A stretch of DNA of 64,000 nucleotides from an uncultured Eubacteriales bacterium (GTDB taxonomy: Bacteria; Bacillota; Clostridia; Christensenellales; CAG-917). This document shows positions 3,545 through 56,405 of the stretch, piece after piece. Position numbers and translations under genes: made by a program. Numbering within the stretch: position 1 is the first letter of the stretch; each line of letters opens with the position of its first letter. The stretch is from NCBI GenBank assembly GCA_900548005.1, contig URIZ01000009.1, forward strand, positions 2,130 through 66,129, in the 5' to 3' direction. A model generated the notes under the pieces. The model saw nothing but the letters and a program-made list of their open reading frames with translations, was not told the origin of the DNA and searched no databases.

Positions 3545-4768
3545 ATGGACATCAAAACTCTTGCGGAAAAGTTGCAGTACGTTGCGCTTTACACGGCGAT
3601 TGCAATCATTGCAAGCTGCATTGTGGTCGGTTTGCTCGTGTGGTTTTTCAAGCGTGAAAAATTCAACGATTTCAAAAAGTATGCAATCGGCATCGTCACG
3701 GGATTTGCCGCGACAATGCTTGTGGTATTCTCATACGTTATGTTCCAACGCAACATAAACAAAATGCAAGCAATGCTTTTCTATCCCATTCTTGCAATGC
3801 TCATCGTGGTGGTTGCAGGCGGCATAGCAGTGCTTATCAGCTCGCTTTTCAGCAATAAAGCCGCAAAAATCAGCTTGATAGTCACAAGCGTATTGTTCTT
3901 GGCAAGTTTTATCGCGCTCGTCGTGGTTGTATGGAAATACTACAACGCCCACTTTGACGAATTCAAAAAAGATTATCCCGGTATGAGCCTTGTCGGTATG
4001 GTTGTGTCGGCGGTCGTGATTTTGGCGGTGATGGTCGTTTTGTGGTTTGTCGGCGACAAGCGCAAGTTGAACGACACTCGCTCGATTGTTTACGGCGCAG
4101 TTGCAATGGCTCTGGCATTCGTGCTTTCGTATGCAAGACTTTTCAAGCTCCCCAACGGCGGTTCAATCACCTTTGCAAGCCTTTTGCCGCTTATGATTTA
4201 TTGCTGTATGTTCGGCACAAGAAGAGGTCTTATCGTTTGCAGTTTTTACGGCGTGTTGCAAGCACTTCAAGACCCCTATATCATTCACCCCATGCAATTC
4301 TTGCTCGACTATCCTCTCGCATTCGGACTTGTCGGCGTGAGCGGTATCTTTATGGAAAAGGGCGTTTTCAAAGAGAAAAAAATCTTGGCATTCTTGCTCG
4401 GTGGCGTGGTTGCCGTGTTGTTTAGATACATTTGCCACGTTTGCTCGGGTACGTTTGCGTTTGCAACTTACACCGATTTCAAAGCCGCGCTTGCATACAG
4501 TTTGGGCTACAACGCTACGTACGTGTTTGCCGATATGGCAATATCCCTCGTTGCGGGCAGTTTCTTGTTTGCGTCCAAGTCCTTCACGGCAACCATGGTT
4601 GCGTCCGGTGACTTGAACAAGCCCGTTCAACAAGAAGAACAACTTGTCGAAGAAGACCTTGACGACGTTGACCGCCAAATCATCGCAAATCAAGAAAGTC
4701 AAGCCCAAACGAAAGCAAGCGACAACGACGCTCAAGACAAATCGACAGACGAACAAAACAAACAATAA
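3545..4768 (+). CDS. thiT: ECF-type thiamine transporter S-component (ThiT-like) fused to an extra N-terminal multi-TM region and an acidic tail
   Basis: The C-terminal half (GGSITFASLLPLM...HPMQFLLDYPLAFG) resembles ThiT, and a TPP riboswitch lies upstream. The N-terminal ~180 aa are additional TM helices. Confidence 0.7.
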   Translation: MDIKTLAEKLQYVALYTAIAIIASCIVVGLLVWFFKREKFNDFKKYAIGIVTGFAATMLVVFSYVMFQRNINKMQAMLFYPILAMLIVVVAGGIAVLISSLFSNKAAKISLIVTSVLFLASFIALVVVVWKYYNAHFDEFKKDYPGMSLVGMVVSAVVILAVMVVLWFVGDKRKLNDTRSIVYGAVAMALAFVLSYARLFKLPNGGSITFASLLPLMIYCCMFGTRRGLIVCSFYGVLQALQDPYIIHPMQFLLDYPLAFGLVGVSGIFMEKGVFKEKKILAFLLGGVVAVLFRYICHVCSGTFAFATYTDFKAALAYSLGYNATYVFADMAISLVAGSFLFASKSFTATMVASGDLNKPVQQEEQLVEEDLDDVDRQIIANQESQAQTKASDNDAQDKSTDEQNKQ

Positions 4769-5560: not shown

Positions 5561-6379
5561 TCACTGCTCCGTCAGCTCGGCATAGAGTTGTTTCACACGC
5601 TTTTTCAAGACGGGATGCAATTTGTTCGGGCAAAGCTCCACAAGCGGCGCAAGCACGAAATCTCTGTTTTGTATATCGATATGCGGCACGCAAAGATCGT
5701 CATCTTCTATGATCTCGTCACCGTAAAAAACGATGTCTATATCAAGCGTTCTGTCCCCCCACCTTTCAAGGCGCACCCTGTCGCCGTCTTTTTCGATTGC
5801 GTTGATTGTCGCAAGCAACTTCTTTGGCGAGTAGAGTGTTTCCGCCTTCACCGCGCTGTTGACAAAATCGTTTTTTGCCACTCCTCCGTACGGCTTGGTG
5901 ACGATACGCGCGCTCTCTTTGACGTTTCTGAAATTGTCGTCCGCAAGCAGTCTTTCCATTGCAAAATCAAGGTATCCGCCCTTGTCGCCCATGCTTGAGC
6001 CAAGCGCGAGATACACCGTTTTCCACTTTCTTTCAACTCGCACGCCGGCATACTCGAAAACGCCGCTCATAGGTGCGTCAGGCTTTTTGACGGTGAGTTT
6101 CACCTTGCTTGCCAATGGGTATTTTTTGAGCAAAAGTTCTGTCGATTTTACGGCAAGAGTTTCGATGAGATCGAAGCAGTTGTTTTCACAAAACGACTTT
6201 AATGTCTTCTTTACGTCGCTATAACTTATGGTTTTTGTCAAATCGTCGCTTTCGGCGCATTGCGAAAAGTCCGTGAAAATCTCAGCCGTAAACACAAATC
6301 TTTGCGGATTGACCTTCTCCTCTGGGTTTACGCCGTGGCAAGCCGTCACTTCAAAATCTTTGAGAATCACAACGTCCAT
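5561..6379 (-). CDS. folBK: bifunctional dihydroneopterin aldolase / 2-amino-4-hydroxy-6-hydroxymethyldihydropteridine diphosphokinase
   Basis: N-terminal FolB-like segment (MDVVILKDFEVTACHGVNPEEK) and C-terminal HPPK segment (YLALGSSMGD...RWGDRTLDIDIV). Start taken at ATG 6379, adjacent to the folP stop. Confidence 0.85.
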   Translation of the reverse strand: MDVVILKDFEVTACHGVNPEEKVNPQRFVFTAEIFTDFSQCAESDDLTKTISYSDVKKTLKSFCENNCFDLIETLAVKSTELLLKKYPLASKVKLTVKKPDAPMSGVFEYAGVRVERKWKTVYLALGSSMGDKGGYLDFAMERLLADDNFRNVKESARIVTKPYGGVAKNDFVNSAVKAETLYSPKKLLATINAIEKDGDRVRLERWGDRTLDIDIVFYGDEIIEDDDLCVPHIDIQNRDFVLAPLVELCPNKLHPVLKKRVKQLYAELTEQ

Positions 6380-6381
6380 AC

Positions 6382-7200
6382 TCACACCCTTTTCGTGCAA
6401 TCGATGATTGCAACGTTCTCCTTTACGTCATGCACTCTGACAAACAACACGCCCTGTTTGACCGCAAGCGCGGTGGAATCCAAAGTGGCGGACAAGCGAG
6501 AGTCTACATCACCGCCGAACATGGATTTTCTTGACGTTCCGAGCAAGAACGGATACTCGTCAAAATCGTCCAACAACTTGTCGTAGCCATTCAACAGTTG
6601 CCAATCTTCATCGTTGTTTTTGTTGAAACCTATGCCGCCGTCAAGCAAGATTTTGTCCTTGTCAACGCCTTGGCATATCAATTTGTCAATCGCGTTTTGC
6701 AGCCCGATTTGCTTGTCGAGAAAAAGGTCTTTGATTTTGGTGTTTCGTCTGTTGTGCATAACGCACACGCTTGCGCCCGTGTCGGCAAGAACGTTGATCA
6801 TGCCGTCATATTGCAAGCAACTCACGTCGTTGATCATGTCCGCGCCCGCGTCGATTGCCGCCTGCGCAACGTCGGGATAGAACGTGTCCACGCTTATGGG
6901 GATGTCGGCGAAAACTTCCCTTATTCCTTCAACGGCAGGCAAAACTCTTGCCATCTCTTCTATCGCGCTCACTTGCACGTTGCCGGGTCTTGTTGACTGT
7001 CCGCCGATGTCTATTATCTCTGCGCCTTGCTCGATAAACTTGCGCGCGGCTTCAACCGCATCATGCGCGTGACGGCTGCCCGACCAAAAGCTGTCCGGCG
7101 TGACATTGAGTATCGCCATAACGTGCGTACCCGTTGTGAAAACGCTGTCTTTAACCTTGAAATTGTATTGTCTTTGATATCTCATATTCGCTATTCTCAC
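6382..7200 (-). CDS. folP: dihydropteroate synthase
   Basis: ILNVTPDSFWSGS, IIDIGGQSTRPG and later pterin-binding motifs. Confidence 0.9.
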   Translation of the reverse strand: MRIANMRYQRQYNFKVKDSVFTTGTHVMAILNVTPDSFWSGSRHAHDAVEAARKFIEQGAEIIDIGGQSTRPGNVQVSAIEEMARVLPAVEGIREVFADIPISVDTFYPDVAQAAIDAGADMINDVSCLQYDGMINVLADTGASVCVMHNRRNTKIKDLFLDKQIGLQNAIDKLICQGVDKDKILLDGGIGFNKNNDEDWQLLNGYDKLLDDFDEYPFLLGTSRKSMFGGDVDSRLSATLDSTALAVKQGVLFVRVHDVKENVAIIDCTKRV

Positions 7201-8035: not shown

Positions 8036-9358
8036 CTATTTGTTTGTCAAGGCGCAAAACAAAGTCAGCGAGCCGCACAAAATCACCACGTCGCTGTCCT
8101 TGTCGTCAAGCGCCGATTGCACTGCAAGTTTTATGTCGTCGCACTCGTCCGTTTGGCAGGGATAGCAAGACACAATCTCTTTCAGCTCGTCTTTGTCCAT
8201 AGCTCTCGGGCTTGGCGGCGTGATGCACGTAATCTTGTGCGCAAGGGGCGCAAGGATTTTGCAAATGCCCTTCACGTCCTTGTCTTTTAGTATGCCCAGC
8301 ACAAGATGAATTCGCTTTCCGACGAAATAAGTTTCTATTGCGTCTTTGAGCGTCATTGCGCCTTGCGGATTGTGCGAACCGTCAAAAACAAGCACTTTAT
8401 CTTGCGGAACCGATATGTTAAACTTCTTTTTTGCGTTTTTGACAACTTCGAGGCGAGCATGCCACACGGCTTTTGCAAGCCCCTTTTCCACTGCAGATTG
8501 CGGTATGTCCCAATGCTTGCGCCTTAGCGCGTCAACGGCGCAAAGAACAATGGACGCGTTGACAAGCTGATGTTTGCCAAGCATGGATATAAAGTATTCT
8601 TTGCCGTCATAGACAAATTTTTGCCCCGACAAATCGCTTGAAACAAGCCTCGGCTCTTTTGCGATTTCCACAGTGGGCGTGACGTCTATACGCTTGCCGT
8701 CTTCCGTTCTGTACGGGTGCAAAATCTCTTGCATGATCTCGTCCGATTGCTTGCAAGTGACGGCAACGTCACGTATGATTGCCGCCTTCTCGCTTGCGAT
8801 TTGTCCGAGCGTATTGCCAAGAATTTGGCAATGATCAAGCCCTATGGGCGTGATGATTGCAAGCTCTTTTTTGCGTATTACGTTGGTTGCGTCCCACCGT
8901 CCGCCAAGCCCTGTTTCGAGCACGCAAACGTCACACTCTTTTTCATAAAACGCAAGGAACGCGACTGCGGTTTCTATCTCGAACGCGGTTGGCTGAAACT
9001 TGTCAAGACCAAAAGCCGCGCGGAGATTTTGCTCGTTTTCGATTGTTTCTCTGACAATCGTGAGATAGCGCGCAACGTCCTTGTCTTCAAGGGGTTTGCC
9101 GTCTATGAGCCACCTTTCGTTGTAACAAAAAACGGACGGCGAATTGTACGTGCCCACTTTGTAACCCGCTTCTTTCAAAACGGACGTGAGATATGCCGTC
9201 ACCGAGCCTTTGCCGTTTGTGCCGGCAACGTGTATGAATTTCAATTTGTCGTCGGGATCGGACAAAAGGGACAACAGCTCGCGCATACGCTCTATACCGT
9301 AGTCCGAGCCTGCTCTCTCGATATTTTTGATGTAATCGACAGCTTGTTTGTAGTTCAA
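8036..9358 (-). CDS. folC: bifunctional folylpolyglutamate synthase / dihydrofolate synthase
   Basis: HVAGTNGKGSV P-loop and Mur-ligase architecture. The tracked ORF runs upstream through the riboswitch, so the start is placed at in-frame TTG 9358, preceded by GAAGGGGG. Confidence 0.85.
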   Translation of the reverse strand: MNYKQAVDYIKNIERAGSDYGIERMRELLSLLSDPDDKLKFIHVAGTNGKGSVTAYLTSVLKEAGYKVGTYNSPSVFCYNERWLIDGKPLEDKDVARYLTIVRETIENEQNLRAAFGLDKFQPTAFEIETAVAFLAFYEKECDVCVLETGLGGRWDATNVIRKKELAIITPIGLDHCQILGNTLGQIASEKAAIIRDVAVTCKQSDEIMQEILHPYRTEDGKRIDVTPTVEIAKEPRLVSSDLSGQKFVYDGKEYFISMLGKHQLVNASIVLCAVDALRRKHWDIPQSAVEKGLAKAVWHARLEVVKNAKKKFNISVPQDKVLVFDGSHNPQGAMTLKDAIETYFVGKRIHLVLGILKDKDVKGICKILAPLAHKITCITPPSPRAMDKDELKEIVSCYPCQTDECDDIKLAVQSALDDKDSDVVILCGSLTLFCALTNK

Positions 9359-9420
9359 AAAAAAGCACCCCCTTCGGAAGCACTTTGCAAAAGCCGAAAC
9401 CACGGCTGATTGTGAAGTCT

Positions 9421-9508
9421 GGAGTGGATACCGCACCGCGAGTTTTCTCTTCGTCCGCTGACACCCCACGTTCATACGGCACTTAACGCGCAATATCCTA
9501 CTACTTCC
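9421..9508 (-). promoter_or_regulatory. THF (tetrahydrofolate) riboswitch aptamer
   Basis: Minus-strand GGAAGUAGUAGGAUAUUGCGCGUUAAGUG...GAACGUGGGGUGUC...GACGAAGAG..CGCGGUGCGGUAUCCACUCC tracks the crystallised THF-I aptamer sequence as I recall it (GGAGAGUAG..CGCGUUAAGUG..GAAUGGGAUGUC..ACGAAGCGAG..CGCGGUG..CAUCCGCUCC). Confidence 0.8.
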
Positions 9509-17339: not shown

Positions 17340-17455
17340 TTGGCTGAGTTTTTCTCGTTTTTAATCCGAGTTTAGTCCGTTTTTAGTCCGAGTGTTGCTC
17401 TCTTTTTTTTATCCGAGTTTTCGTCCATTTTTAGTCCGAATTTTATCCGCCCTTT
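17340..17455. repeat. phased T-tract / TCCG repeat block
   Basis: Seven copies of TTTTTA(G/A)TCCGAGT-like units. The TCCG cores lie at 17365, 17376, 17387, 17412, ~17424, 17435 and 17446, mostly spaced 11 nt. Confidence 0.6.
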
Positions 17456-17555: not shown

Positions 17556-18803
17556 TTATTCTTGCATGAGATAGTCACGGCAAGCGTCTTCAAGAGCTCT
17601 GCAAATCACAAATGCGTCTTCAAGGTCTTTGCCGCGCACGACAACTCCGTGGTGTCCCATAAAGCAAGCGCGAGCGTCACCGATTGCCGCCGCAACGTTT
17701 TTGACAAGTCCGTTCGTGCCGGGGAGAGCCGGTTTTGCGCACGGAATCTCTTTGCCGAGAACGTCTTGATACTTTTCGGGCACAGGCATAGCCTTGTTCA
17801 TTGCCGCAAGAATGCAGCCGTAGAACGGATGTGTGTGGATGCTTGCGGTTGTGCCGTCGTTTTGGGAAAGAAGAATCGCATGGATGCCCTTTTCGCTGGT
17901 GGCTTTGTTCGTGCCCGTCCATTTGAGCGTCTTCATATCCACTTTTGCCATTTGTTCGGGCTCGAGCATGAGATAGTCGATGCCGGACGGCGTTGCAAGC
18001 ATATAGGTGTCGTCAAGTTTGACGGCGATATTGCCCCACGTGCCTTGAACGAGATTTTCTTCAAGCAATCTGACGCCTGCGTCTTTGATTTGTTGAGCGA
18101 TTCTCTTCTCTTCGTCCGTGACGACAGCGGATTGTTTTTCTTCTTTCTTCTCTTGCGCGCCTGTTTCGGCGGCTTTTTGCTGTTGTTGATTGGTCTTGGA
18201 GTATTTGAGCTTGAAAACAACGTGTTCAAGGAAAGCGGCGATTGCGCTCATGTGTTGAGTGCCTCCCTTGTTTTCGGAAAGAATTTCCGCATTGCAAGCC
18301 TTGTCAAGCACAAGCGTTGCCGTGAACACTTCGTCAAGAGTACGTCCCGTGACCACCGCGCCGGCATCTGGGAGCAAGCACACGTTGCGTTGTCCCGAAA
18401 GAGCCGCCACAACGTCGGATGCAACGTTCTTTTGAGCGCACTTGATAGACACGCCGCACACTTGCGTAAGGTCGTCGAGAATGGGCATGAGAGTCTTTCT
18501 CTTGGACGAGAAAGCCACGGTGCTGTCGCTGTCCACGATAGCCGCCGCTCCTGCCTTTTTGTCTTGACGCACCGCGCAATAAAGAATGACCGCCGCCGCT
18601 CTGAAATTGCCTTCGAGCGTTTCGATGTTCTTGTCGTTGACAAAGGTGAGATTGTCTTCGGTGACGTTGGTGTAATCTATCTTGGGATTGGTGATGACGA
18701 TGCCGTCATCTTGTTTGACTGCGATATAACCCGATTGCAGATATTTCTTTTCTGCAAGCATACGAGCGTATTTGTTGACGTTTGCAACAATCAATTCGTT
18801 CAT
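17556..18803 (-). CDS. tandem class II aldolase/adducin-domain protein
   Basis: Two aldolase_II-like halves joined by a Q/E/K-rich linker. The C-terminal half keeps SEKGIH...SIHTHPFYG, and the N-terminal half has AAIVDSDS at the equivalent position. Confidence 0.75.
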   Translation of the reverse strand: MNELIVANVNKYARMLAEKKYLQSGYIAVKQDDGIVITNPKIDYTNVTEDNLTFVNDKNIETLEGNFRAAAVILYCAVRQDKKAGAAAIVDSDSTVAFSSKRKTLMPILDDLTQVCGVSIKCAQKNVASDVVAALSGQRNVCLLPDAGAVVTGRTLDEVFTATLVLDKACNAEILSENKGGTQHMSAIAAFLEHVVFKLKYSKTNQQQQKAAETGAQEKKEEKQSAVVTDEEKRIAQQIKDAGVRLLEENLVQGTWGNIAVKLDDTYMLATPSGIDYLMLEPEQMAKVDMKTLKWTGTNKATSEKGIHAILLSQNDGTTASIHTHPFYGCILAAMNKAMPVPEKYQDVLGKEIPCAKPALPGTNGLVKNVAAAIGDARACFMGHHGVVVRGKDLEDAFVICRALEDACRDYLMQE

Positions 18804-21163: not shown

Positions 21164-21191
21164 TACTTTGATAATAAGAACAATAAAAATT

Positions 21192-21219
21192 CCATCGGTC
21201 TCGACCGATGGTTTTTTTT
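21192..21219 (+). terminator. intrinsic terminator of the HU gene
   Basis: CCATCGGT-CTCG-ACCGATGG followed by eight T. Confidence 0.8.
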
Positions 21220-21833
21220 ATGAACAAAAGCAAGGAATAGCCCCTTGAACAGCAACCCTAATGTACTATGCGTGCATTTGTAAAAAATGCGATAAATCGA
21301 TGCATAACGCGAAAGCACCCCGAGAATGACAACCCTAATGTACTTACGTACATGAGTTGGCAGGCTCGGAGTACTTGCGTAATTAACTTTTCTCTCTCGT
21401 AAAAACGAAATAAATAGATAAAGAACAAGGAAACACCCATCCGAAACAAAACCCAACGTACTATGCGTACGTGATTTTGGAGCGGTTATTTGCTCACTAT
21501 CACACTTTCTCTCTCGTAAAAATGCAATATTGAGATGAAGAGCAAGGAAAAGCCCCTTGAACAGCAACCCTAATGTGCTGTATGCATTTGTAAAAAATGC
21601 GATAAATCGATGCATAACGCGAAAGCACCCCGAGAATGACAACCCTAATGTACTTGCGTACATGAGTTGGCAGGCTCGGAGTACTTGCGTAAGTAACTTT
21701 ACTCTCTCGTAAAAATGCAATATTGAGATGAAGAGCAAGGAAAAGCCCCTTGAACAGCAACCCTAATGTACTATGCGTACATGAGTTGATGGACAAGGGG
21801 CTTTGACAAAGCTATTCGCTCAATAGTGCATTT
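21219..21833 (-). repeat. six-unit array of the stop-codon-abutting hairpin element (two subtypes)
   Basis: Units at about 21219-21280, 21281-21398, 21399-21516, 21517-21590, 21591-21708 and 21709-21833. All share the CAACCCTAATGTAC-N-GTACATGAGTTG or AAAACCCAACGTAC-N-GTACGTGATTTTGG core. Confidence 0.8.
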
Positions 21834-24671
21834 TTACTCGGAGCGGAGAGCAATCGCCGGATCCTTCTTCGCCGCAATCCTTGACGGTATAAAACCTGCA
21901 AACATGCTAAGAAGGATGCTGATGGCAAACATGATAAGGCATTGCCACCAAGAGATAGACATAAGTCCGCTGATTTTGAAGATGGTCTTCAAGATTGCGC
22001 TGATGGCAAAGGAGAAACCAACAGAAATGACGATGCCGATAAGTCCGGAATAGCCGCCGAGAATGGCGGATTCGGCAAGGAAGACTCGGGATATATCCTT
22101 CTTTCTTGCACCGATCGAGCGGAGCACGCCGATTTCTTTTCTACGTTCAAGCACGGACGTGTAGATGATGATTGCAATCATTATGGTGGACACAATCAGC
22201 GAGATTGCCGCAAACGCAACAAGCACGCCTGTTATGGTGTTGACCATGGTGTTGACAAACTTCATAATGGTGGACAAGTTGTCGCCATAGCTGACGCTTG
22301 AACCGGTGTCTTTGTTGTATTGATTGATGAATGCGACAATCTTCTCTTTCGCCTCGAAGGACGAGCAGTAGAACTCAATGGACACAGGCTCTTCGAGATT
22401 TGCAACGCCGAGCTTTCTCATGATGGTGAGATCTTCGTTTTTGTTGTCTGCAAAGCTGATTTTGTTGCCTGCAAGCACCTTGATTTGCGTTCCGTTGTTG
22501 GTGGAATAATCAAAGTTGATGGGGCTGAGGTAGTAGTCGTAGTTGTCGTTGTCCGCCGCTTCTTTGAGAGCGTTCATTCTCACAACAGCCTCGTGCTTGC
22601 TTGCGCGCTCGATCAAAAGTTGCGTGAGCGCGGGCGTATAGCCCAGAACACCGTTGATTGACGTGACGGTCACGCCTGCTTTCGGACGAATGACGCCGAC
22701 CACTTTGACGGTGACGGGATCTCTCGAATCAATCCAGCTCTTGTTTTGTTCCGCATGATTGCGCCCCGTCCAAGTCTTGTCTTTCACGCCGTCGCCGTCC
22801 GTGTCAACCCACTTGTCCTCGGAGTCTTGTTCAAGATAATCGGCGTCCGAAATGACCTTGTATTCAAGCCCCAACAGCTCTTCTACGGACGTTTTGTAGT
22901 TTGCCCATTTCTTGTCTATGAGAGCTTTTATCACATCGTCTTGCGATTGAAGACCGAGCATGAAGAGTTGATAGTCAAGAAGTTGGTTGCTCTTGTCAAC
23001 AACAACCACCGTTTCGGTTGCGCTTGACGGCCAACGCGAGTTTTCACCCACAAGTTCGTATTGAGATTCGAGTAGCTTTTGGTTTGAGGACATCTCTGCC
23101 CATGAATTCATCATCGAACCGCCGTTTCTTGAGAACATGTTGAGCATATCGTTGAGCGACGAGCCGCCGATATCCATATTTTTTATATCGTCCGGCAACA
23201 CGTCAAGCACCGCATTCATTGTGTCGGCATAGGGGCTGACCTTCATATAGCGTTCCGCTGCCTTTTTTGCCTCTTCCAAAGTCGCTTCGGGATGTTCTTT
23301 CATATATTCGGCGACAATCTTGCTGTTGTTCGGGTCTTCCTTGAACGCATTGAAACTTACGCCGTAATTGTATTTGACAGTCGCAAGCGAGTCGTCAAAT
23401 TTTTCATCGATATACTTTTTGAGCTTGACAAGATCGTTTTCCGCAAGCAGCGTTCCGAGCTGATCAACCACTTTGCCGAGCATTTGTGCGGTGTAGATCT
23501 CATTGGTGTCGGGGTTTTCGGGTCTATCCGTCTCATTGTTCATCAACATGCCCAAAATTGCCGACGGATCGGTGTTTGTCTTGCTTATGGTCAGCGGATA
23601 GGTTGACAACGCGCTCTCTTCAAGCCCTCTGACATATCCCGCCGCGCCGTTTGAAAGGGACAGAACGAGAATTATGCCGATTATGCCGATTGAGCCCGCA
23701 ATGGACGTGAGCAGCGTGCGACCTTTCTTTGCGAGCAAGTTGTTCCAAGACAGATTGATTGCCATTGACAACTTCATCGCGCATTTGTCCGCTTTCTTAT
23801 ATTTTTTGAAACGCTCGCACAGCGTTTTTCTCTTTTTCTTGGGTTCTTCGGTCTTCTTTTCGACAATCTCGACGATTTCGTCTTGGGACAGCTCGCCCGC
23901 AACGTTGTCTCTTTCGATGTCTTCCACCGCTTCTTCCACAACGTCTTCGCCAAGTCTGTCTTCAAGTTCTTGAATCTCGTCCTTGGAATTGTACGGCATG
24001 GAATCACCCACAACTTCGCCGTCTTTCAAGTACACGATACGTGTGCTATACTCTTCTGCAAGTGAGGGGTTGTGCGTGACCATAATGACAAGCCTGTCTT
24101 GCGCCACTTCTTTGAGCAGATCCATGACTTGAATGCCCGATTCGCTGTCCAACGCGCCGGTGGGTTCGTCGGCAAGGATGATCTCGGGATTGTTGACAAG
24201 CGCACGCGCAATTGCCACTCTTTGCATTTGTCCGCCGGAAAGTTGGTTGGGCTTTTTGTTGGCTTGAGATGCAAGCCCCACCTTGTCAAGAGCCTCGAGC
24301 GCGCGACGCTTGATCTCTTCCTTCTCAACGCCGGCAAGAGTCAGGCTCATTGCCACGTTCTTGAGAATGTTCATGTGCGGAATAAGATTGTAGGATTGAA
24401 AAACAAAACCGATACGGCGGTTTCTATAAGTGTCCCAATCAACGTCGTCGTATGCCTTGGTGGACACACCGTCGATTTGGATGTCGCCGTTGGTGTAGCG
24501 GTCAAGACCGCCTATAATGTTGAGAAGCGTCGTCTTTCCGCACCCGGAAGGGCCGAGAATAGAGACGAATTCGTTCTTTCTGAACTCTATGGAAACGTTG
24601 TTTAACGCAAGGACTTTTTCTTCATCCTTGTCGATGACGTACTCTTTGGTTATATCTATAAGTTTAAGCAT
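21834..24671 (-). CDS. fused ABC transporter ATP-binding / FtsX-family permease (MacB-type)
   Basis: 945 aa. N-terminal ATPase ([35 protein letters not shown]), acidic linker, TM, large extracytoplasmic domain, C-terminal FtsX 3-TM bundle. Confidence 0.85.
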
Positions 24672-35835: not shown

Positions 35836-36305
35836 TGCGGCACTTATACACACACTCTGCCTATTCGGAGTGTACTTATAAACGGACTGTGTAGCTTAAA
35901 AGACGGAACACGAGCCGCAAGGCGGCGAGCAAATCGAGCGTCGGACTTGACGGTTGTACGAGAATGCGTGGCGTTCTGTTGCGTAGCTGCCACGCAGGCG
36001 AAGTGGCACAATAAGAGAAATGGCGTAAGTTATGTCTCGACCGAGTGTTGTCCCCCGCTACGCGGTCACCGTGGGTTCCCTTTCAGGGGGAACGGTGATA
36101 GGGAAAACACCTGAGGAAAGGGGAAAGTTGCATTTAGAGTTTCAAACACTCACCCTTGTAGAGATAAAAAACAAAGCAAAAACTTATCGGGCGAAAAGAA
36201 GATTGCGCCTTGCGGCTGGATGTTTCGACAAGCTCAACATGACAATATAGAAAAATTTGTCATTTGCGCCCGTAATATCACTCATTTTAGTGTGCAAGCA
36301 GTGCC
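35836..36305. ncRNA. candidate large structured RNA or cargo segment of unknown class
   Basis: About 470 nt with no convincing ORF and many local perfect helices (TGCGTGGC/GCCACGCA, TCACCGT/ACGGTGA, GCCG/CGGC, CACTC/GAGTG). Closed by GGCACT(35839)/AGTGCC(36300) and CACACT(35851)/AGTGTG(36289). Confidence 0.3.
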
Positions 36306-36457
36306 TGACGCAGTTCGCCAACACTTCTATGATGACCGCGCCAAACGGATGAATAACAAGAAAGGCACTGTTTGAACCAAAACCCAACGTACTGAACGTA
36401 CGTGATTTTGGAGCAAGCAGTGCCTGACGAAGTTAGTCGCCGTTTGGCGCGGTCATC
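36293..36457 (-). repeat. hairpin element copy (subtype B) abutting the lysC stop codon, plus an upstream partial right arm
   Basis: 18-bp perfect inverted repeat 36331-36348 / 36440-36457 encloses AGGCACTG...AAAACCCAACGTAC-TGAAC-GTACGTGATTTTGG...CAGTGCCT. A 17-nt direct repeat lies at 36294-36310 = 36413-36429. Confidence 0.75.
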
Positions 36458-37757
36458 GGAAGGCGTTGTAAATGGAATTGATCGCCTTCTCATAATCAAA
36501 AGTGTCTACACCCACGATTATGTTCAGCTCCGATGAGCCTTGGTCGATCATGCGAACGTTGACGTTGTTTGCGGCAAGAGCGGAAAAGAGCGTGGCAGCC
36601 GTACCAAGACGAGATGCCATGTTGTGTCCGACGGTTGCGATGAGAGAAAGTCCGCTGTGGATCTCGATGTTGTCGGCGTTGATGGACTCTTGCAAGGAAG
36701 CAAGCACTTTTTGCATTTTGCCGGCGATGTACTCGTCACGGATGACAACGGAAAGCGTGTCTATGCCGCTGGGGACATGCTCGAAAGATATGCCTTCAAA
36801 CTCAAGCACGGAAAGCACTTTTCTGCCAAAACCGATCTCGGAGTTCATCATATCTTTTTCAACGTTGATGATTGTAAAGCCCTTTTTGCCGGCGATGCCC
36901 GTGATGACCTTGTTGTTTTTGGGCAAATCCTTTTCGGACACGATCATAGTGCCGGGGTGGGACGGGTTGAAAGTGTTTTTGATGTTTATGGGGATACCCA
37001 CGCTGCGAACGGGAAAAATGGACTCCGGGTGCAAGACTTCCGCGCCCATATAGGCAAGCTCTCTCAATTCTCGATAGCTCAAAAAGTCGATGATTTCGGG
37101 ATTGTCAACGATGCGCGGATCGGCGGTGAGAAATCCGTCAACGTCCGTCCAGTTTTCATAGATATCCGCGCCTATCGCGCGAGCAACGAGCGCGCCCGTG
37201 ATGTCCGAGCCGCCGCGAGAAAACGTGGTGATTTCCCCGTTTTGATTGCTGCCGTAAAAGCCGGGAATGACCGCCCTTTCAACGTTTTCAAGACGCTTTT
37301 TGATAAGGTCGAGCGAATAGTGCATTTGCAGTTTTTCGCCGTTGAATTTGACTATATCCGCCGTGTCGATAAACTCGTATCCGAGCTTTTTTGCAAGCAC
37401 GATTGCCGAGAGATACTCTCCCCTTGACGCCGCATAGTCCGCGGTTTTGCTTGCATCTATGCCTGCCTTGACTTTGTCAAGCACAGAGTCGATGTCAAGG
37501 TCAATGCCAAGCTCGAAGACGATGTCTTCAAAGCGTTTTCGCACCACCTTGAAGGTTTCGTCACAGTTGCCTTTTTCCATACGCTCGGAAAAGCATGCGT
37601 ACAAAGCGTCGGTGACTTTGACGTCCGCCTTGTTGCGCTTGCCGGGCGCGGACACAACGATGTATCGCCTGTCCTTGTCTTGATTTATGATGTCCACAAC
37701 GCGCGATATAGTGTCGCCGTTCGCCATGGACGTTCCGCCGAATTTACAAACTTTCAT
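36453..37757 (-). CDS. lysC: aspartate kinase
   Basis: KFGGTSMANG start motif, amino-acid kinase domain and C-terminal ACT pair. Start uncertain (37757 or 37775). Confidence 0.9.
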   Translation of the reverse strand: MKVCKFGGTSMANGDTISRVVDIINQDKDRRYIVVSAPGKRNKADVKVTDALYACFSERMEKGNCDETFKVVRKRFEDIVFELGIDLDIDSVLDKVKAGIDASKTADYAASRGEYLSAIVLAKKLGYEFIDTADIVKFNGEKLQMHYSLDLIKKRLENVERAVIPGFYGSNQNGEITTFSRGGSDITGALVARAIGADIYENWTDVDGFLTADPRIVDNPEIIDFLSYRELRELAYMGAEVLHPESIFPVRSVGIPINIKNTFNPSHPGTMIVSEKDLPKNNKVITGIAGKKGFTIINVEKDMMNSEIGFGRKVLSVLEFEGISFEHVPSGIDTLSVVIRDEYIAGKMQKVLASLQESINADNIEIHSGLSLIATVGHNMASRLGTAATLFSALAANNVNVRMIDQGSSELNIIVGVDTFDYEKAINSIYNAFR

Positions 37758-39022: not shown

Positions 39023-39900
39023 CAGTCAAATCTCCCGTTCTTTCGTATTTTGCTTGCAAACTTGTTTCTCTTGCGACCTTGATGCGCCTCTCTGAGCGCG
39101 ATTGCCGTTGGAGAAATGCCGTATGCTTCTTCTATCTCGTCTTTGAGCTTGTCCATGGTCATATAGCGTTTGATTTCGCCGTGTTTGACAACTGAGATGA
39201 TGCCCGTCTCTTCACTCACGACAATGGACAAAACGTCCGTATCTTCGGTGATGCCGATAGCCGCGCGGTGACGAGTGCCCATCTCTTTGTTGACGTTGCG
39301 TTGAGTGAGCGTCAAAAAGCAGCCGGCTGCAATGATCTTGTTGCCGCGCACGATGACCGCGCCGTCGTGAAGGGGTGCTTTTGTGTTGAATATACTCTCA
39401 AAAAGCGGAGCAGACAACGTGGCGTTGAGCCTTGTGCCGGTGTCAAGGATGTTGTCGTGGATGTCGCCTGCGCTGTCGATGATGATGATTGCGCCAACGT
39501 CCTGCTTTGCCATATCCTGACAAGCGGTGAGGATCTCCGCCGTTGCATCCCTAAGCTCGTCGTCGCTGTTGTGCGTCTCAAAGCCCTTTGCGGTGGAAAC
39601 TTTTTGGAAGATGTTCTTCAAATCGTTTTGGTACACAACGCAGCTTGCCACGATGTCGAATATCACGACAAGATGCATCACGTATTTCGAGATTGCAAGA
39701 ATCTCTCCCCCCATGATCTCGGAAAGCACGTTGACAAGCACTTCGAGTATTCCGCCAAGAAGAAGAAGGAAGAACACTTTCATGTTGCGCTTGTAGATGA
39801 AAAAGCTCAACAGAATCGCGAACACGGTGATGATAATCACCATATCGATGATGAAATAGAGATTGATCCCTTTTGCGTATTGGGCAAAATTGTACGACAT
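39022..39900 (-). CDS. cdaA: diadenylate cyclase CdaA
   Basis: Three N-terminal TMs and a DAC domain with DGAVIV, GTRHRAA and SEETG motifs. Confidence 0.9.
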   Translation of the reverse strand: MSYNFAQYAKGINLYFIIDMVIIITVFAILLSFFIYKRNMKVFFLLLLGGILEVLVNVLSEIMGGEILAISKYVMHLVVIFDIVASCVVYQNDLKNIFQKVSTAKGFETHNSDDELRDATAEILTACQDMAKQDVGAIIIIDSAGDIHDNILDTGTRLNATLSAPLFESIFNTKAPLHDGAVIVRGNKIIAAGCFLTLTQRNVNKEMGTRHRAAIGITEDTDVLSIVVSEETGIISVVKHGEIKRYMTMDKLKDEIEEAYGISPTAIALREAHQGRKRNKFASKIRKNGRFD

Positions 39901-39977
39901 ATTTCTCTCCGCGCCGATAAATCGGCATTGTAATTTTGATTGTTCGGCGGCAATACGCAGGGCGTGCCGCCACTCAA

Positions 39978-40097
39978 TGACGTTTGCGTTGTCGTCATTG
40001 CTTTGTCAAGCGTTGCGTTGCCGCAATCGTTTTGTCAAACGTTGCGTTGTCGGCTTTGCTTTGTCAAACGCAAAGTTTTGCAGGCATTGCCGCCGCC
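39978..40097. repeat. about four tandem ~29-30-nt direct repeats
   Basis: GTCAA(A/G)CGTTGCGTTG(Y)CG...TTGCTTT units between the membrane-protein gene stop and the cdaA start. Confidence 0.6.
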
Positions 40098-40100
40098 CGA

Positions 40101-41000
40101 TTATATATCAAACTCGTCAAAGACGTGTTGATCATCCTTTTCTTTTGTTTTGACGTGCTGATGTTCAAACTCGGCAAAGGTGTCGCCGGTGTCGTTGCGT
40201 TGCGTATAGCCGCTTTGTCTTTGGTCTTCGGGGTGCTTTTTGAAATAGTTTTCTCTTGTGTCCGCTCCCCTATATTGCGCGGCTTGTTTTTTGAGCAAGG
40301 TGGCAACGACTATATCCGCGATGAGATATGCAAAATACACGCAAATCGCCACGATTGACGAGTACACTTGCACGGGTGCGGTGAGATAGTCCACATAGTA
40401 GCCCATCTCTTTGAGATATGCGACAAGCTCTTGAGTGACGTTTGTGTTTGCGCCGATAGAAACTATGGTGAGATTTTCGCTGAGCACCGAAAGCCCCAAC
40501 ACCAGCATGAACACCACCGAATACACAGTGAAACTGTTTGCTCTCTCAACGGGATTGAGATTGTATATCTTCTTGAACACGCAAAAGAACATCACAAGCA
40601 TCGCCGCCGGCAACGCCGTCACCGTGTAGAGCGTGGAAGTGACAACGTAAACTGCGGGTTGCAAAATGGCAAAACAGTCGATGATTCCGTTGACAAGGCG
40701 CACCGCCGCGACAAACATCATCACCCAGCCGCAAAAATCCGTGCGAGAGATATAGTTTGAGTGACGTCTTGCGCAGATATACCACATCACAAGCGCAAGC
40801 AAGAACGTGACTGCCATCGGCACAAGCCCGTAGCTGAAAATGCCGAGCAACACTTGCGTTGCCACTTGCACGCCGCTCATCCCCACTCCGACCATTTTTG
40901 TAAGCTCGTTGTAGATGGGATAGATGTTGCTAAAAAACGTTGCAAACAGCAATCCGAGCCAAATCCATACGAAATATTTTTTGTCTATCTTGTTTTTCAT
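40101..41000 (-). CDS. uncharacterised multi-pass membrane protein with a charged C-terminal tail
   Basis: 299-aa hydrophobic ORF. No family recognised. Confidence 0.5.
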   Translation of the reverse strand: MKNKIDKKYFVWIWLGLLFATFFSNIYPIYNELTKMVGVGMSGVQVATQVLLGIFSYGLVPMAVTFLLALVMWYICARRHSNYISRTDFCGWVMMFVAAVRLVNGIIDCFAILQPAVYVVTSTLYTVTALPAAMLVMFFCVFKKIYNLNPVERANSFTVYSVVFMLVLGLSVLSENLTIVSIGANTNVTQELVAYLKEMGYYVDYLTAPVQVYSSIVAICVYFAYLIADIVVATLLKKQAAQYRGADTRENYFKKHPEDQRQSGYTQRNDTGDTFAEFEHQHVKTKEKDDQHVFDEFDI

Positions 41001-43592: not shown

Positions 43593-43741
43593 GTGCGTAA
43601 TTAGAAGAACAATAAGCCTAATGCGGCTCTCGGCGTTGCTTGCTTGCAAGCGATGCCGTTGCCGCAATGACGGCTTTTGTTCGGGCGTACATGAGTTTAC
43701 GGGAGCATGGCTCTAACGCAGTTATTCGCTAAATAGTGCGC
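43593..43741 (-). repeat. rearranged hairpin element copy with a 63-nt apical insertion, abutting the ABC ATPase stop codon
   Basis: The right half is nearly identical to the 55.4-kb copy (GTACATGAGTTTACGGGAGCATGGCTCT..GTTATTCGCTAAATAGTGCGC). The left outer-stem partner is missing. CCTAATG and GTACATGAG are separated by 43624-43686. Confidence 0.7.
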
Positions 43742-44809
43742 TCACAGAACTTTGGAGAGGAAATCGCGCAACCTCTCACTCTCCGGGTTTTCGAAAATCT
43801 GTTGAGGAGTGCCTTGTTCGAGAATTTTGCCTTCTGCCATGAAGAAGATTTTGTCGGCGACTTCACGGGCGAATGCCATTTCGTGAGTGACGATGAGCAT
43901 GGTCATACCCTTGTTTGCGACACGCTTGATGAGATCGAGCACTTCACCGACCATCTCGGGATCGAGAGCGGACGTGGGCTCGTCGAAGAGCAAGACTTTG
44001 GGGGACATGGCAAGGGCGCGCGCGATTGCGACGCGTTGCTTTTGACCGCCGGAAAGCGTGGACGGATAGACGTCGGCTTTGTCGGACAAACCGATGCTTT
44101 CAAGCAGCTTGTCGGCGGTGATTGACGCGGCCTTTTTGATCTCTTTCTTGCTTGTGAATTGCAAAGGAGCAACGCTCTTTTGAGCAAAGGGAACGGTGCG
44201 ACCGATTTTGCGTTCGAGATTTTCCACTTTGTCGGTGAGAGCGAGCTTTTGTTTTGTGAGTTTTTTGTCGTAAGTGGCAAAGGGTTTGCCGCCGACATAC
44301 TTGATTGTTTTTGTTTCGTCCCACGCAGAAACGATAGGTTTAAGTTTGGTTTTGTAGTCTTCAAGTTGCGTTTGCAGCAAAACAAGCTTTTTGTCGATAT
44401 GCTTGTTGTATGCGTTGCCAAAGGCTTTGAACCATGCGTTGTGCAAAGGCACAAAAACGTTTTTAAGGCGAGTAAGGCGCATGTTTTTCACGCCGATTTG
44501 CACTGGCGCAAGCATGATATTTTCTTTGACGGTCATGTTGGAAAACAGGTTGAATTGTTGAAAAACCATACCCATTTTTTCACGCTGACGATTGATGTCC
44601 ACCTTCAAGTCCGCAAGGTCAACGCCGTCAAAAATGATCTTGCCCGCATTGGGGTCTTCAAGGCAGTTCAGACAGCGCAAAAATGTGGATTTGCCGCTGC
44701 CACTCGGGCCGATGATGGCAACCGTTTCCCCTTCTTCGATGCTTGCGGAGATGTCGTCAAGCACGAGAAGATCGCCGTATTTTTTTGTGAGATTGTATAC
44801 GTCTATCAT
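43742..44809 (-). CDS. amino-acid ABC transporter ATP-binding protein with a ~105-aa insertion
   Basis: [33 protein letters not shown] and LFDEPTSALDPE. An extra segment lies between the Q-loop region and the signature motif. Confidence 0.9.
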   Translation of the reverse strand: MIDVYNLTKKYGDLLVLDDISASIEEGETVAIIGPSGSGKSTFLRCLNCLEDPNAGKIIFDGVDLADLKVDINRQREKMGMVFQQFNLFSNMTVKENIMLAPVQIGVKNMRLTRLKNVFVPLHNAWFKAFGNAYNKHIDKKLVLLQTQLEDYKTKLKPIVSAWDETKTIKYVGGKPFATYDKKLTKQKLALTDKVENLERKIGRTVPFAQKSVAPLQFTSKKEIKKAASITADKLLESIGLSDKADVYPSTLSGGQKQRVAIARALAMSPKVLLFDEPTSALDPEMVGEVLDLIKRVANKGMTMLIVTHEMAFAREVADKIFFMAEGKILEQGTPQQIFENPESERLRDFLSKVL

Positions 44810-55236: not shown

Positions 55237-55261
55237 TCAAAAATTGTAAAGTATAAATTGC

Positions 55262-55430
55262 AAAAACCACGATAAATAGATGAAGAACTTCGTGTATGTT
55301 GTAAAAAAGCGCGATAAATAGATGAAGAACAAGAAAGAGCCACGCTATCGGCAACCCTAATGTACAAGTAGTACATGAGTTGACGGGAGCGTGGCTCTGC
55401 CGAAGTTATTCGCTATTTAGCGCGCTTTTA
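55262..55430 (-). repeat. hairpin element copy (subtype A) abutting the dehydrogenase stop codon, plus an upstream partial unit
   Basis: Intact unit at 55301-55430: arms TAAAAAAGCGCGATAAATAGATGAAGAAC / GTTATTCGCTATTTAGCGCGCTTTTA, outer stem GAGCCACGCT/AGCGTGGCTC, core CAACCCTAATGTAC-AAGTA-GTACATGAGTTG. Duplicated left arm at 55269-55288. Confidence 0.8.
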
Positions 55431-56405
55431 GTCGCAGTTTATAAGAATCTTGCCATATTGCAACGGATATTTCACACACGATTCCACCACTTGCGGAATC
55501 TCTTCAAAGTTTGCGGTTGCGCCGATGAGGCCGTCGGTCTTCACCACTTTGTTGGCAAGAAGGTTGATGGCAGAAGACAATTCTCCGATGCCGTTGCACA
55601 CGCCTTTGAGAGTGAGTTGTTTTTTGAGAACAGTGCCTGCGTCCACTGCGTGTTTTGCGCGAGTGGCATAGCCTGCGATGATGACGTCGCCTTTGTTTTT
55701 GACAAGACGGATTGCCGCATTGACGTCCACGCTTTCGCCCGAGAAGATTGCCGCCTCAGCCATTCTGCCGCCGGTGATTTCTTCCACCCTGCGTTCGAGA
55801 TTGTCATAGGTCGGGTTGAGGGTGTAGCAAACGCCCCACTTTTGCGCAAGAGCGAGCTTGTCAACGTCCAGATCGATAAGGATGGGCACGTATTGATAAT
55901 ACGTTGCCATTTGTCCGAGAATAAGACCGAGCGTGGATGCGCCGACAATGACGATATAGTCGCCTTTTTCGCGGTCGAGAGCCTCAAAAACGTTGTTGCC
56001 CATCGCGATATACTCGGTGAACAACGCCTCCTCGTCGCTTATGCCGTCGGGAAGCGCGAAAACGTTTTCAAGCGGAACGCACGCAAAATCTCTGAGCAGT
56101 CCGTCAACGTCAACGCCCATGGTCTTGACGACTTCTTCGCCGTGTTCGCATTGTTGCAAATAGGGGCTGACCACAACGCGCGATCCGAGTTTGAGACCGC
56201 TATCATCGTCCGCCTCGCTCACAAGCGCGACCGCCGAATGTCCGGGAACAACCGCATCGTCCTTTGCCATTGCCGAAAGATTGCACACGTCTTGGGAAGA
56301 AATCGCCACTTTTGCGATTTTCACCTTGACCTGACCGTCTGCTCTTTGGCTTACGTCTTCAACGAGCGTTGCGCCGTCTTCTTTGTTTATAATCCATTCT
56401 TTCAT
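55428..56405 (-). CDS. zinc-binding medium-chain alcohol dehydrogenase family protein
   Basis: GroES-like N-terminal domain (VPGHSAVALV) and Rossmann VIVGASTLGLILGQ. Confidence 0.85.
   Translation of the reverse strand: MKEWIINKEDGATLVEDVSQRADGQVKVKIAKVAISSQDVCNLSAMAKDDAVVPGHSAVALVSEADDDSGLKLGSRVVVSPYLQQCEHGEEVVKTMGVDVDGLLRDFACVPLENVFALPDGISDEEALFTEYIAMGNNVFEALDREKGDYIVIVGASTLGLILGQMATYYQYVPILIDLDVDKLALAQKWGVCYTLNPTYDNLERRVEEITGGRMAEAAIFSGESVDVNAAIRLVKNKGDVIIAGYATRAKHAVDAGTVLKKQLTLKGVCNGIGELSSAINLLANKVVKTDGLIGATANFEEIPQVVESCVKYPLQYGKILINCD

Follow-up and report, generated by a model that had tools for sequence, protein, structure and literature searches.

A stop-codon-anchored palindromic repeat family with the appearance of an exchangeable terminator in uncultured Clostridia

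The HU-MacB locus

Here we describe a family of hairpin-forming repeats from a 64,000-nt stretch of the genome of an uncultured Eubacteriales bacterium (contig URIZ01000009.1 of assembly GCA_900548005.1, positions 2,130 to 66,129), hereafter the window. Within it, a minus-strand open reading frame (ORF) of 945 amino acids (21834-24671), of MacB type by its ABC_tran and FtsX domains, is separated by a spacer from the gene for HU (Bac_DNA_binding). The spacer begins at the HU terminator hairpin, an A-run, 8-bp stem and T-run picked out by the repeat finder at 21185-21218, and ends at the TAA stop of the MacB-type gene (21834-21836, minus strand). Between these boundaries lie six head-to-tail units of one hairpin element, a non-coding, palindromic, interspersed chromosomal repeat of about 129 nt with no ORF of note inside it.

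An initial annotation, made from the letters alone, had placed a six-unit array between these two genes, and the repeat and its flanking genes lie where it placed them. The core motif CAACCCTAATGTAC, allowing up to two mismatches, occurs six times in the window against 0.09 expected, with five occurrences within 21253-21771, and the repeat finder returns a six-copy direct repeat family at spacings of 77, 118, 117, 75 and 118. The array was not detected by Tandem Repeats Finder. A higher-order repeat of 205 nt, with a spacing of 310 and 88% identity, confirms the proposed recurrence of units 1 and 2 as units 4 and 5. The annotation had also reported an inverted copy of the gene end at unit junctions. 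Indeed, the gene end at 21819-21837 is joined to the unit starts at 21516 and 21709 by 19-nt inverted arms, GTAAAAATGCAATATTGAG and CTCAATAGTGCATTTTTAC, that are 95% complementary, and the gene-end arm includes the stop codon (TTA on the plus strand).

Read on the plus strand of the window, the element has the order O5-C5-S5-apical hairpin-S3-C3-O3. Its base is an outer stem (O5/O3) of 17-19 bp. Above this lies C5/C3, a 7-bp helix with a central mismatch (GAAGAAC/GTTATTC) together with a conserved 6x7 internal loop (AAGAAA/TGACRAA), followed by S5/S3, a GC-rich stem of 10-11 bp whose sequence is free. The apical hairpin, CAAC-CCYA-AYGTAC-N4-6-GTACRT-GA-GTTG, is the most conserved part.

Full anatomy had been ascribed to every unit. 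This is true of unit 6, whereas units 1-5 are truncated or rearranged and score 26-53 bits with the covariance model against 141.6 bits for unit 6. All units are on the plus strand. Unit 6 (21709-21837), the sole intact member, spans model positions 1-129, with O5 at 21709-21727, C5 at 21728-21743, then S5-apical-S3 and C3, and O3 at 21819-21837. Unit 1 (21220-21279; nhmmer model positions 23-73) has no outer left arm and consists of C5, S5, the 5' half of the apical hairpin and an 8-nt remnant of an outer right arm, GTGCATTT. Unit 4 (21516-21589; model positions 3-67) retains its outer left arm and is cut in the apical loop as unit 1 is, so that both are devoid of the 3' half of the palindrome. 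Unit 2 (21280-21398; 52.9 bits, model positions 24-107) has an outer left arm, C5, S5 and a complete apical hairpin, and its right arm from S3 onwards is occupied by the linker AGTACTTGCGTAATTAACTTTTCTCTCTC. The right arm of unit 5 (21590-21708; 47.9 bits), which is 97% identical to unit 2, has been replaced in the same way. Unit 3 (21399-21515; 26.3 bits) belongs to a second subtype, B (AAAACCCAACGTAC...GTACGTGATTTT), as had been recognised; S3 and part of C3 are deleted, and a linker stands for the outer right arm. In units 2, 3 and 5 the linker reads ...ACTTTyCTCTCTC. Its CTCTCTC pairs with GGAG...GAGAG of the gene end in both folds, and the linker could be what decay has left of an inverted copy of the 3' end of MacB.

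Family and hosts

The element is not peculiar to this locus. Scanning one-genome-per-species contigs with the core pattern gave at least 104 loci in many species-level metagenome-assembled genomes (MAGs), whose record labels include 'Christensenella sp.', uncultured Clostridia or Clostridiales, Firmicutes bacterium CAG:475 and CAG:238, and similar names. A single 1.65-Mb MAG is the source of many of the loci listed. The covariance model recovers 132 full-length copies in about 0.7 Mb. An nhmmer census of the scanned loci together with the window (about 0.8 Mb) gives 229 non-overlapping matches at 147 sites, comprising 84 solos, 49 doublets, 11 triplets, two quadruplets and one six-unit array; the HU-MacB array is the largest. 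Some subfamilies share their entire outer stem between unrelated loci.

The suggestion that the element belongs to no described family is upheld by every search made. Rfam returns no match in the region at gathering thresholds, and chance-level hits only at E up to 10. Nothing similar came to light in IMG/VR viral contigs, plasmids or phages by pattern or BLAST search, and blastn found no match in 20,395 Escherichia coli records from 5,426 genomes. In the literature we found no description of the hairpin family, nor of transposable elements of the miniature inverted-repeat kind (MITEs) that target stop codons. Among the collected loci, which sample genomes only around the elements, there is no autonomous long version with an ORF, and the left and right motifs are never more than 262 nt apart.

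Three kinds of variant were also seen. In one subfamily, a 33-nt insert, GTAAGGAACGAAGTGACGGAATAGCGATTGTTAC, sits at one fixed point of the C3 internal loop (loci L006, L017, L043, L055, L066, L089, L094, L101, L135 and L133), reminiscent of the size variants of ERIC (the enterobacterial repetitive intergenic consensus). A few copies (L012, ~4055-4183; L080, ~4572-4633; L100, ~6231-6360) carry the apical hairpin the other way round with respect to the arms, as if flipped by recombination between the S-stem arms. Finally, a divergent apical hairpin, CAGTCACGTAC-N5-GTACGCTCCTG, is borne on the usual arms at L078 (~950-1076 and 6146-6270) and L082 (~6894-7022). The family therefore has members beyond those that the core pattern, by which its loci were collected, can recognise.

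Structure and covariation

The structure was aligned over 74 intact copies, the choice of which partly selected for pairing in the outer helix and not in the other helices. RNAalifold recovers 47 pairs, with compensatory changes in 38. Standard pairs occupy 97.2% of cells; shuffling lowers this to 74%, and displacing the 3' partners by one to three columns lowers it to 31-39%. For example, column pair 60-75 is UA in 44 sequences and CG in 30; at pairs 51-82 and 54-79, 64 sequences have CG and 9-10 have AU. The paired changes that distinguish unit 3 in the array (ATGTAC/GTACAT against ACGTAC/GTACGT, and CAAC/GTTG against AAAA/TTTT) are a polymorphism of the whole family. Between subfamilies, the S stems are wholly different 10-mers and do not look like variants reached step by step.

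The unpaired parts are conserved as well. The columns of the CCYA/GA internal loop, reported earlier as retained between subtypes, are invariant or nearly so. Covariance model scores are 130-144 bits on one strand and 55-64 on the other, and this difference of about 75 bits means that the asymmetry of the loops is itself conserved. A K-turn or loop E motif was considered for the CCYA/GA loop and set aside on inspection, as the loop does not fit their G·A/A·G consensus.

If selection acted on an RNA from one strand, G·U would be expected to be far better tolerated than A·C. Among 5,874 helix cells, with one conserved T·G pair set aside, mispairs are G·T or T·G in 127 cases and A·C or C·A in 97. 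Because neither strand prefers G·U over A·C, the pairing looks to be kept at the level of DNA, by copying from arm to arm. Selection or template-switch correction on the structure had been proposed from the array; the family-wide pairing (97% against 74% shuffled), the compensatory changes in 38 of 47 pairs and the near parity of the two mispair classes bear this out. Quasipalindrome template switching or gene conversion would fit the pairing of the stems, and selection on an RNA helix would fit less well. Since arm-to-arm copying would tend to erase unpaired motifs, those that are conserved must be under sequence-specific constraint.

The same properties could be read as those of a functional structured RNA, either a protein-binding 3'-untranslated-region (UTR) element for stability or processing, or a plus-strand small RNA antisense to the gene end. 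Unit 6 is very stable on either strand (about -67 kcal/mol, z about -9 to -10), covariation is strong, the internal-loop sequences are conserved, and the T·G pair set aside above, a U·G on the plus strand, is kept in 120 of 129 copies. Moreover, ERIC and Correia repeats in 3' UTRs alter mRNA decay (PMC10969869). However, apart from that pair, G·U does not exceed A·C on either strand, no plus-strand promoter-like site occurs in or before the array, and there is no Rfam family match. Truncated and chimeric units, and the fast replacement of subfamilies described below, are also unlike a conserved cis-regulator. We consider this reading improbable.

Anchoring at stop codons

The position of the element relative to genes was measured from covariance-model coordinates on the 132 full-length copies, using opposite-strand ORFs of at least 80 codons. 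In 78 copies (59%) an opposite-strand stop codon begins between -8 and +2 nt from the 3' end of the element, and in 22 more it lies deeper within the element. At the left end, used as a mirrored control, three of 132 (2%) fall in this range and five lie deeper. Thus, the bias towards gene 3' ends suggested by the single array extends to the family, and the orientation relative to the upstream gene is fixed. The anchored stops are TAA in 65 cases, TGA in 11 and TAG in two (83% TAA), compared with 25, 19 and two (54% TAA) among 46 hand-listed genes of the window.

The gene end also participates in the structure. All three bases of the stop codon are Watson-Crick paired in 35 of 46 copies. In 70% of copies the pairing reaches into the coding sequence by 1 nt or more, against 29% in a null in which left arms were swapped between loci; in 22%, against 1.8%, it does so by 3 nt or more, with a maximum of 12-15 nt (L087 and L088). 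The last residues of the protein are the same in orthologues that carry different elements (HERD*, CDHKA* and ALRSE*, for example). These C-termini are therefore the genes' own, and it is the distal arm that holds an inverted copy of the gene end.

In young pairs of non-orthologous copies, similarity stops at an A/T run into which the stop codon merges, and these pairs did not suffice to establish a TA duplication. In length, the best flanking direct repeats are distributed as in locus-swapped controls, giving no indication of a direct target-site duplication. A protein-based search of orthologues yielded no virgin empty site, producing instead a deletion derivative with an outer-arm remnant at L063 and the divergent-apex copies at L078 and L082.

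Hairpins of fixed orientation directly behind a stop codon, with a structure that is kept while the stem sequence is not, and with asymmetric bulges, recall the attC sites of integrons, folded recombination sites that mark gene cassettes. One subfamily even has GTTAGGC opposite GCATAAC, similar to the R'/R'' core sites. Nevertheless, the defining features of attC fail. The consensus GAAGAAC/GTTATTC does not fit RYYYAAC/GTTRRRY, and the apex is conserved and the base variable, which is the reverse of attC. Further, the arrays are without ORFs and lie among syntenic housekeeping genes (for example HU, MacB and an RNase E/G operon), and no integrase was seen. We have rejected this identification as highly improbable.

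Sequences resembling part of an element occur at some gene ends that have none. A TAAAA-YCGC-like sequence lies in the first 15-20 nt after the stop of element-less genes at 1199, 56604 and 58266 of the window (gene strand), resembling a solitary outer arm, and may be either a scar or a preferred target. The outer-arm-like sequence at L063:7643-7665 is probably the scar of a deleted element.

Transcription-unit ends and terminator-like architecture

On the strand of the upstream gene, UUUCUUGUUCUUCAU comes immediately after the GC-rich S stem (65% GC). This strand has on average 4.7 T in the 8 nt next to the stem (7.4 in the first 12), and 54% of copies have at least five T in eight. On the plus strand the corresponding mean is 0.8 T of eight, and no copy reaches five. 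In unit 6 this tract is UUUCCUUGCUCUUCAU (21728-21743, minus strand), directly 3' of the 11-bp S stem, and is a predicted terminator U-tract. Further along, ...GCGC closes the whole rod in most copies, and a second T-run comes after it. A generic terminator scan flags the tail TTCTTGTTCT on the gene strand. At one orthologous site (L099), the element has been reduced to the S stem, a tetraloop and a T-run.

Four genes of the window bear elements, and each is the last gene of a minus-strand transcription unit. Besides the MacB-type gene, the final gene of a five-gene minus-strand operon is followed by an intact solo element of subtype B (36330-36458, +; 122.6 bits), whose 18-19-bp outer stem takes in the TGA stop of that gene (36453-36455). 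Another intact solo element (55303-55431, +; 139.1 bits) has the TAA stop of an ADH-like gene (55428-55430) in its outer right arm, and distal to it is the remnant of an older unit, comprising an outer left arm and C5 only (55261-55288, +). The fourth site carries a half unit (43686-43744, +), broken in the apical loop and consisting of the 3' strand of the apical hairpin, S3, C3 and O3, the last of which holds the TGA stop of an ABC ATPase gene (43742-43744).

No element of the window lies at an intra-operon junction. The other transcription-unit ends have ordinary short terminators 5-70 nt past the stop, whereas in the first 110 nt past the stops of the four element-bearing genes there is none. 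Among the collected loci, 38 of 86 sites (44%) have a convergent distal neighbour, compared with 18% of all adjacent ORF pairs. Where the distal neighbour is co-directional, it begins a median of 413 nt beyond the array.

Other sequences accompany the distal ends of arrays. At the ABC ATPase site the half unit is bounded by a 'cap' hairpin, GCCGTTGCCGCAATGACGGCTTTTGTTCGG (43641-43685, +), which at many arrays stands in place of the outer left arm of the most distal unit. The cap recurs at distal array ends at L004, L010, L022, L104, L107 and L133, often with the AT-rich run TTAATTAATAATTAATAATGAATAATT, and on the plus strand it resembles a terminator facing the array. A second abundant non-coding repeat, 'X' (about 300-450 nt), accompanies 40 of 114 hairpin arrays at no more than 300 nt from the distal end, and in 28 of these cases it has the orientation of the gene. 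It is found in the window at 35862-36015 and elsewhere at L117:2787-3205, L017:3934-4350 and L107:3334-4103, with at least 27 long copies in other loci. Its conserved blocks are GAGCCGCAAGGCGGCGAG, GTGGCATAA...TATGCGAGTGCC and CCGGCGYGGWCCGGAAAGAGGGGG, and it includes a variable hairpin in which covariation seems to occur. X contains no ORF of note and is not matched by Rfam.

Array growth and turnover between strains

Arrays of the family are head-to-tail in 62 of 63 cases and decay with a clear polarity. The gene-proximal unit is of full length in 43 of 51 arrays, as opposed to 15 of 66 internal or distal units, most of which are missing the gene-proximal arm. Strains of the same species also differ in their arrays. 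In ten metagenome assemblies with an identical HU protein, the HU-MacB spacer ranges from 300 to 1076 bp and contains from three to at least six units. An intact unit of the unit 2, unit 3 or unit 6 type abuts the same gene end, with the junction ...TTTTTAC-TCGGAGCGG, in different strains: the intact version of unit 2 is at the stop in L105 and L114, and that of unit 3 in L113 and L108. Once internal, the same unit has its right arm replaced by the ...ACTTTyCTCTCTC linker. Repeated insertion or amplification beside one stop codon, as the initial annotation had suggested, agrees both with these three types in the stop-proximal slot and with the family-wide anchoring.

The ADH-like (55428) and ABC ATPase (43742) sites likewise turn over within the species. 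Some other strains have an intact unit at the ABC ATPase site, and two different proximal halves occur there on an identical apical-loop deletion junction, which indicates short-tract exchange (conversion) between members of the family. For the 387-aa gene at 42230, the look-up gave only two places, which differ in the gap to the downstream gene (243 against 282 nt). An exact-protein look-up of the 440-aa gene at 36453 gave none on record.

The 310-bp higher-order repeat shows that duplication also occurs, and short-read contigs often break inside the element (L121-L124), so it might be supposed that the array is a local tandem duplication or an assembly artefact without wider significance. 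This is the least credible of the explanations considered, and it is refuted by the independent assemblies and the wider family. Arrays are present at the same site in ten independent metagenome assemblies, including a near-identical six-unit array (L112) that comes from a different sample, and the family occupies many unrelated loci in many genomes. Different subfamilies occur within single arrays, and since this is so of the units between HU and MacB, that array is not a simple local duplication.

Two observations concern the surroundings of these sites. An identical ABC ATPase protein has different downstream neighbours, a GntR regulator or an FAD-binding oxidoreductase, in L128, L130 and L132 as against L127, L129 and L131. 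The breakpoint lies in the repeat cluster downstream of the gene at 43742, so the repeats coincide with a break of synteny. The contigs L121-L124 mentioned above end inside the element 33-48 nt past the stop of the ADH-like gene, from which it follows that the hairpin family fragments assemblies of this lineage.

Interpretation

We propose, with a probability of roughly 0.55, that the element is an interspersed palindromic repeat similar to the SPRITE repeats of pneumococci, which serves as the intrinsic terminator and 3' hairpin of the preceding gene. Its stems would be kept paired by copying at the DNA level, its conserved apex and loops would serve a mobilising or binding factor, and its arrays would record successive arrivals or exchanges followed by decay.

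The element lies directly behind an opposite-strand gene, whose stop codon, in many cases together with one to a few sense codons, makes up the base of the outer stem. On this proposal, the 10-11-bp S stem carrying the apical hairpin, and then UUUCUUGUUCUUCAU, would act on the gene strand as the intrinsic terminator and the hairpin of the 3' end. A mobilising or binding factor would most likely recognise the apical hairpin, with its asymmetric CCYA/GA loop, and the C5/C3 loop. The stems, free of constraint on their sequence, would be held in register by arm-to-arm copying through quasipalindrome template switching or gene conversion, and the same copying would write the inverted gene end into the distal arm. 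New members would arrive, or be swapped in by short-tract recombination, at the stop-proximal slot, and the older units thus displaced would lose their gene-proximal arm and then decay.

Several points weigh against this proposal. At about 55 nt, the stem-loop that the S stem encloses is far longer than in usual terminators; just 54% of copies have five or more T in eight, and copies with a TGA stop are without the outer U-run. A terminator has no need of a conserved apical hairpin or a 19-bp outer stem. There is no G·U excess on the gene strand, and so no sign of selection at the level of RNA. The intactness of proximal units could reflect recency, not selection. Similarly, the enrichment at transcription-unit ends could reflect tolerance in place of function, as has been argued for pneumococcal repeats. 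The case for termination is drawn from sequence features. Lastly, no virgin empty site was found, so the mechanism of arrival and the boundaries given for the element are provisional.

The main rival is that of purely selfish DNA. In that case, a structure-specific enzyme acting on folded single-stranded DNA would recognise the apex and insert the element near stop codons, and the look of a terminator would be incidental. The enzyme could be a Y1/HUH transposase (compare repetitive extragenic palindromic (REP) sequences and IS200/IS605) or a tyrosine recombinase (compare attC). Conserved asymmetric loops and bulges alongside freely covarying stems, the want of a G·U over A·C bias, as a DNA substrate would give, and the strictly fixed orientation with its strand discrimination of about 75 bits would all be accounted for. 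So would the high copy number, the subfamilies sharing a whole outer stem at unrelated loci, the mixture of subfamilies within arrays and the lack of a detectable direct target duplication, in which the family resembles HUH elements. Yet no candidate enzyme gene or autonomous copy was found among the collected loci, in which the left and right motifs are at most 262 nt apart. The sites are occupied in all strains and species examined, the stop-proximal copy is preferentially intact, the U-tract is strongly strand-asymmetric and the elements are restricted to transcription-unit ends. We therefore regard an exclusively selfish element as possible, though somewhat unlikely. Occupancy, proximal intactness, the U-tract and location fit a role for the host, and selfish DNA may still be the mobilisation half of the story, since the two readings are not mutually exclusive.

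More speculatively, the element might be a self-propagating, stop-anchored palindrome without a conventional transposase, which enters or replaces by hairpin-primed or template-switch synthesis and inverts the stop codon and up to about 15 nt of coding sequence into its distal arm. Alternatively, it might be the folded-DNA substrate of an undiscovered structure-specific recombinase of Firmicutes. We hold these ideas to be unlikely. To our knowledge, such a homing mode of 'inverted target copying' has not been described for bacterial repeats.

Should the terminator proposal be true, a clade of abundant uncultured human-gut Clostridia ends many of its transcription units not by fixed terminators, but by an exchangeable, mobile one. 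This would provide a natural system in which to follow the gain, swap and decay of terminators, with a bearing on the annotation of 3' ends in MAGs. Arrays that vary between strains with identical flanking proteins represent ready-made strain markers. The repeat clusters, found at contig breaks and at one synteny break, affect assembly quality and genome rearrangement in the lineage. In addition, the combination of conserved asymmetric loops, free stems, no G·U bias and an inverted gene end bears on how long bacterial palindromes are maintained and propagated.

Other features of the window

A THF riboswitch (9414-9507, minus strand) scores 61.2 bits against a gathering threshold of 36 and lies upstream of a 485-aa minus-strand ORF (8036-9493). 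Two short tandem arrays are unrelated to the hairpin element. One, at 17346-17444, has a period of about 22 nt and 4.3 copies and occupies the spacer that follows a gene whose end is at 17556; the other, at 39984-40070, has a 29-nt period and three copies, in the spacer 39900-40101.

Comparison with known systems

Terminator-like or hairpin-forming interspersed repeats are a kind already known from SPRITE, ERIC and REP sequences and the bacterial interspersed mosaic elements (BIMEs) that REPs form. Judged by architecture and distribution, the closest known analogue is SPRITE. These pneumococcal repeats are interspersed, non-coding and shorter than 200 bp, with an 18-bp duplex, a U-rich tract and AAAA/TTTT ends; no target duplication has been established for them, they are enriched at the 3' ends of convergent genes, co-option as terminators has been proposed, and their insertions are described as rare (PMC3049150). 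The hairpin family is likewise found in Firmicutes and has a long duplex followed by a U-rich tract (on the gene strand only), simple AAAA/TTTT ends and no established target duplication. Its overlap with stop codons (59%) and its excess of convergent distal neighbours (44% against 18%) give it a comparable distribution. No sequence relationship is apparent, and homology is not expected between members of different orders with about 45% and 28% GC. Unlike SPRITE, the element is built as a rod of three tiers, in which the apical hairpin is highly conserved and the asymmetric internal loops are conserved too; the stop codon lies in its base, and its distal arm copies the local gene end. It also forms head-to-tail arrays of up to six units with polar decay, and turns over between strains of one species.

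ERIC sequences, also called intergenic repeat units (IRUs), are similar in being imperfect palindromes of about 127-129 bp in transcribed intergenic regions, with a conserved central inverted repeat, size variants that arise by internal insertion and a copy number that varies between strains. ERIC copies at 3' ends can affect the fate of mRNA (PMC10969869). They belong to a different phylum, and the 5,426 E. coli genomes have no sequence similar to the hairpin element. Stop-codon anchoring, fixed orientation and tandem arrays are, as far as we know, not features of ERIC.

With REP/BIME sequences the family shares abundance, an extragenic palindromic nature, location at gene 3' ends, mosaics with other motifs and no target duplication; recognition by structure is a plausible further likeness. 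REPs are 20-40 nt long, carry GTAG as a conserved head and, within BIMEs, take alternating orientations (PMC2817692). By contrast, the hairpin unit is 129 nt long and has no conserved GTAG, and its arrays are head-to-tail in all but one of 63 cases. No candidate gene for a REP-associated tyrosine transposase (RAYT, of the Y1 type) was seen in the window, where no search was aimed at RAYT.

Classical MITEs such as Correia, RUP and BOX are also short, non-coding and multi-copy, give hairpin-forming transcripts and cluster with other repeats. The hairpin family differs in lacking a direct target-site duplication. Further, the two arms of any one copy are complementary to each other but vary from copy to copy and follow the local gene end, in place of a conserved inverted repeat for transposase binding, and no parent insertion sequence was found among the loci sampled around the elements. 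Quasipalindrome template switching, known from E. coli, produces paired changes in the two arms, perfects palindromes and extends them outwards, and has no preference for G·U. It is a mutational process and not a family of elements, and it would be operating here on the evidence of the pairing pattern. What is new, then, is the family itself and its host clade, the three-tier architecture, a stop codon held in a stem with a locus-specific inverted gene end, polar arrays, and turnover beside identical flanking proteins.

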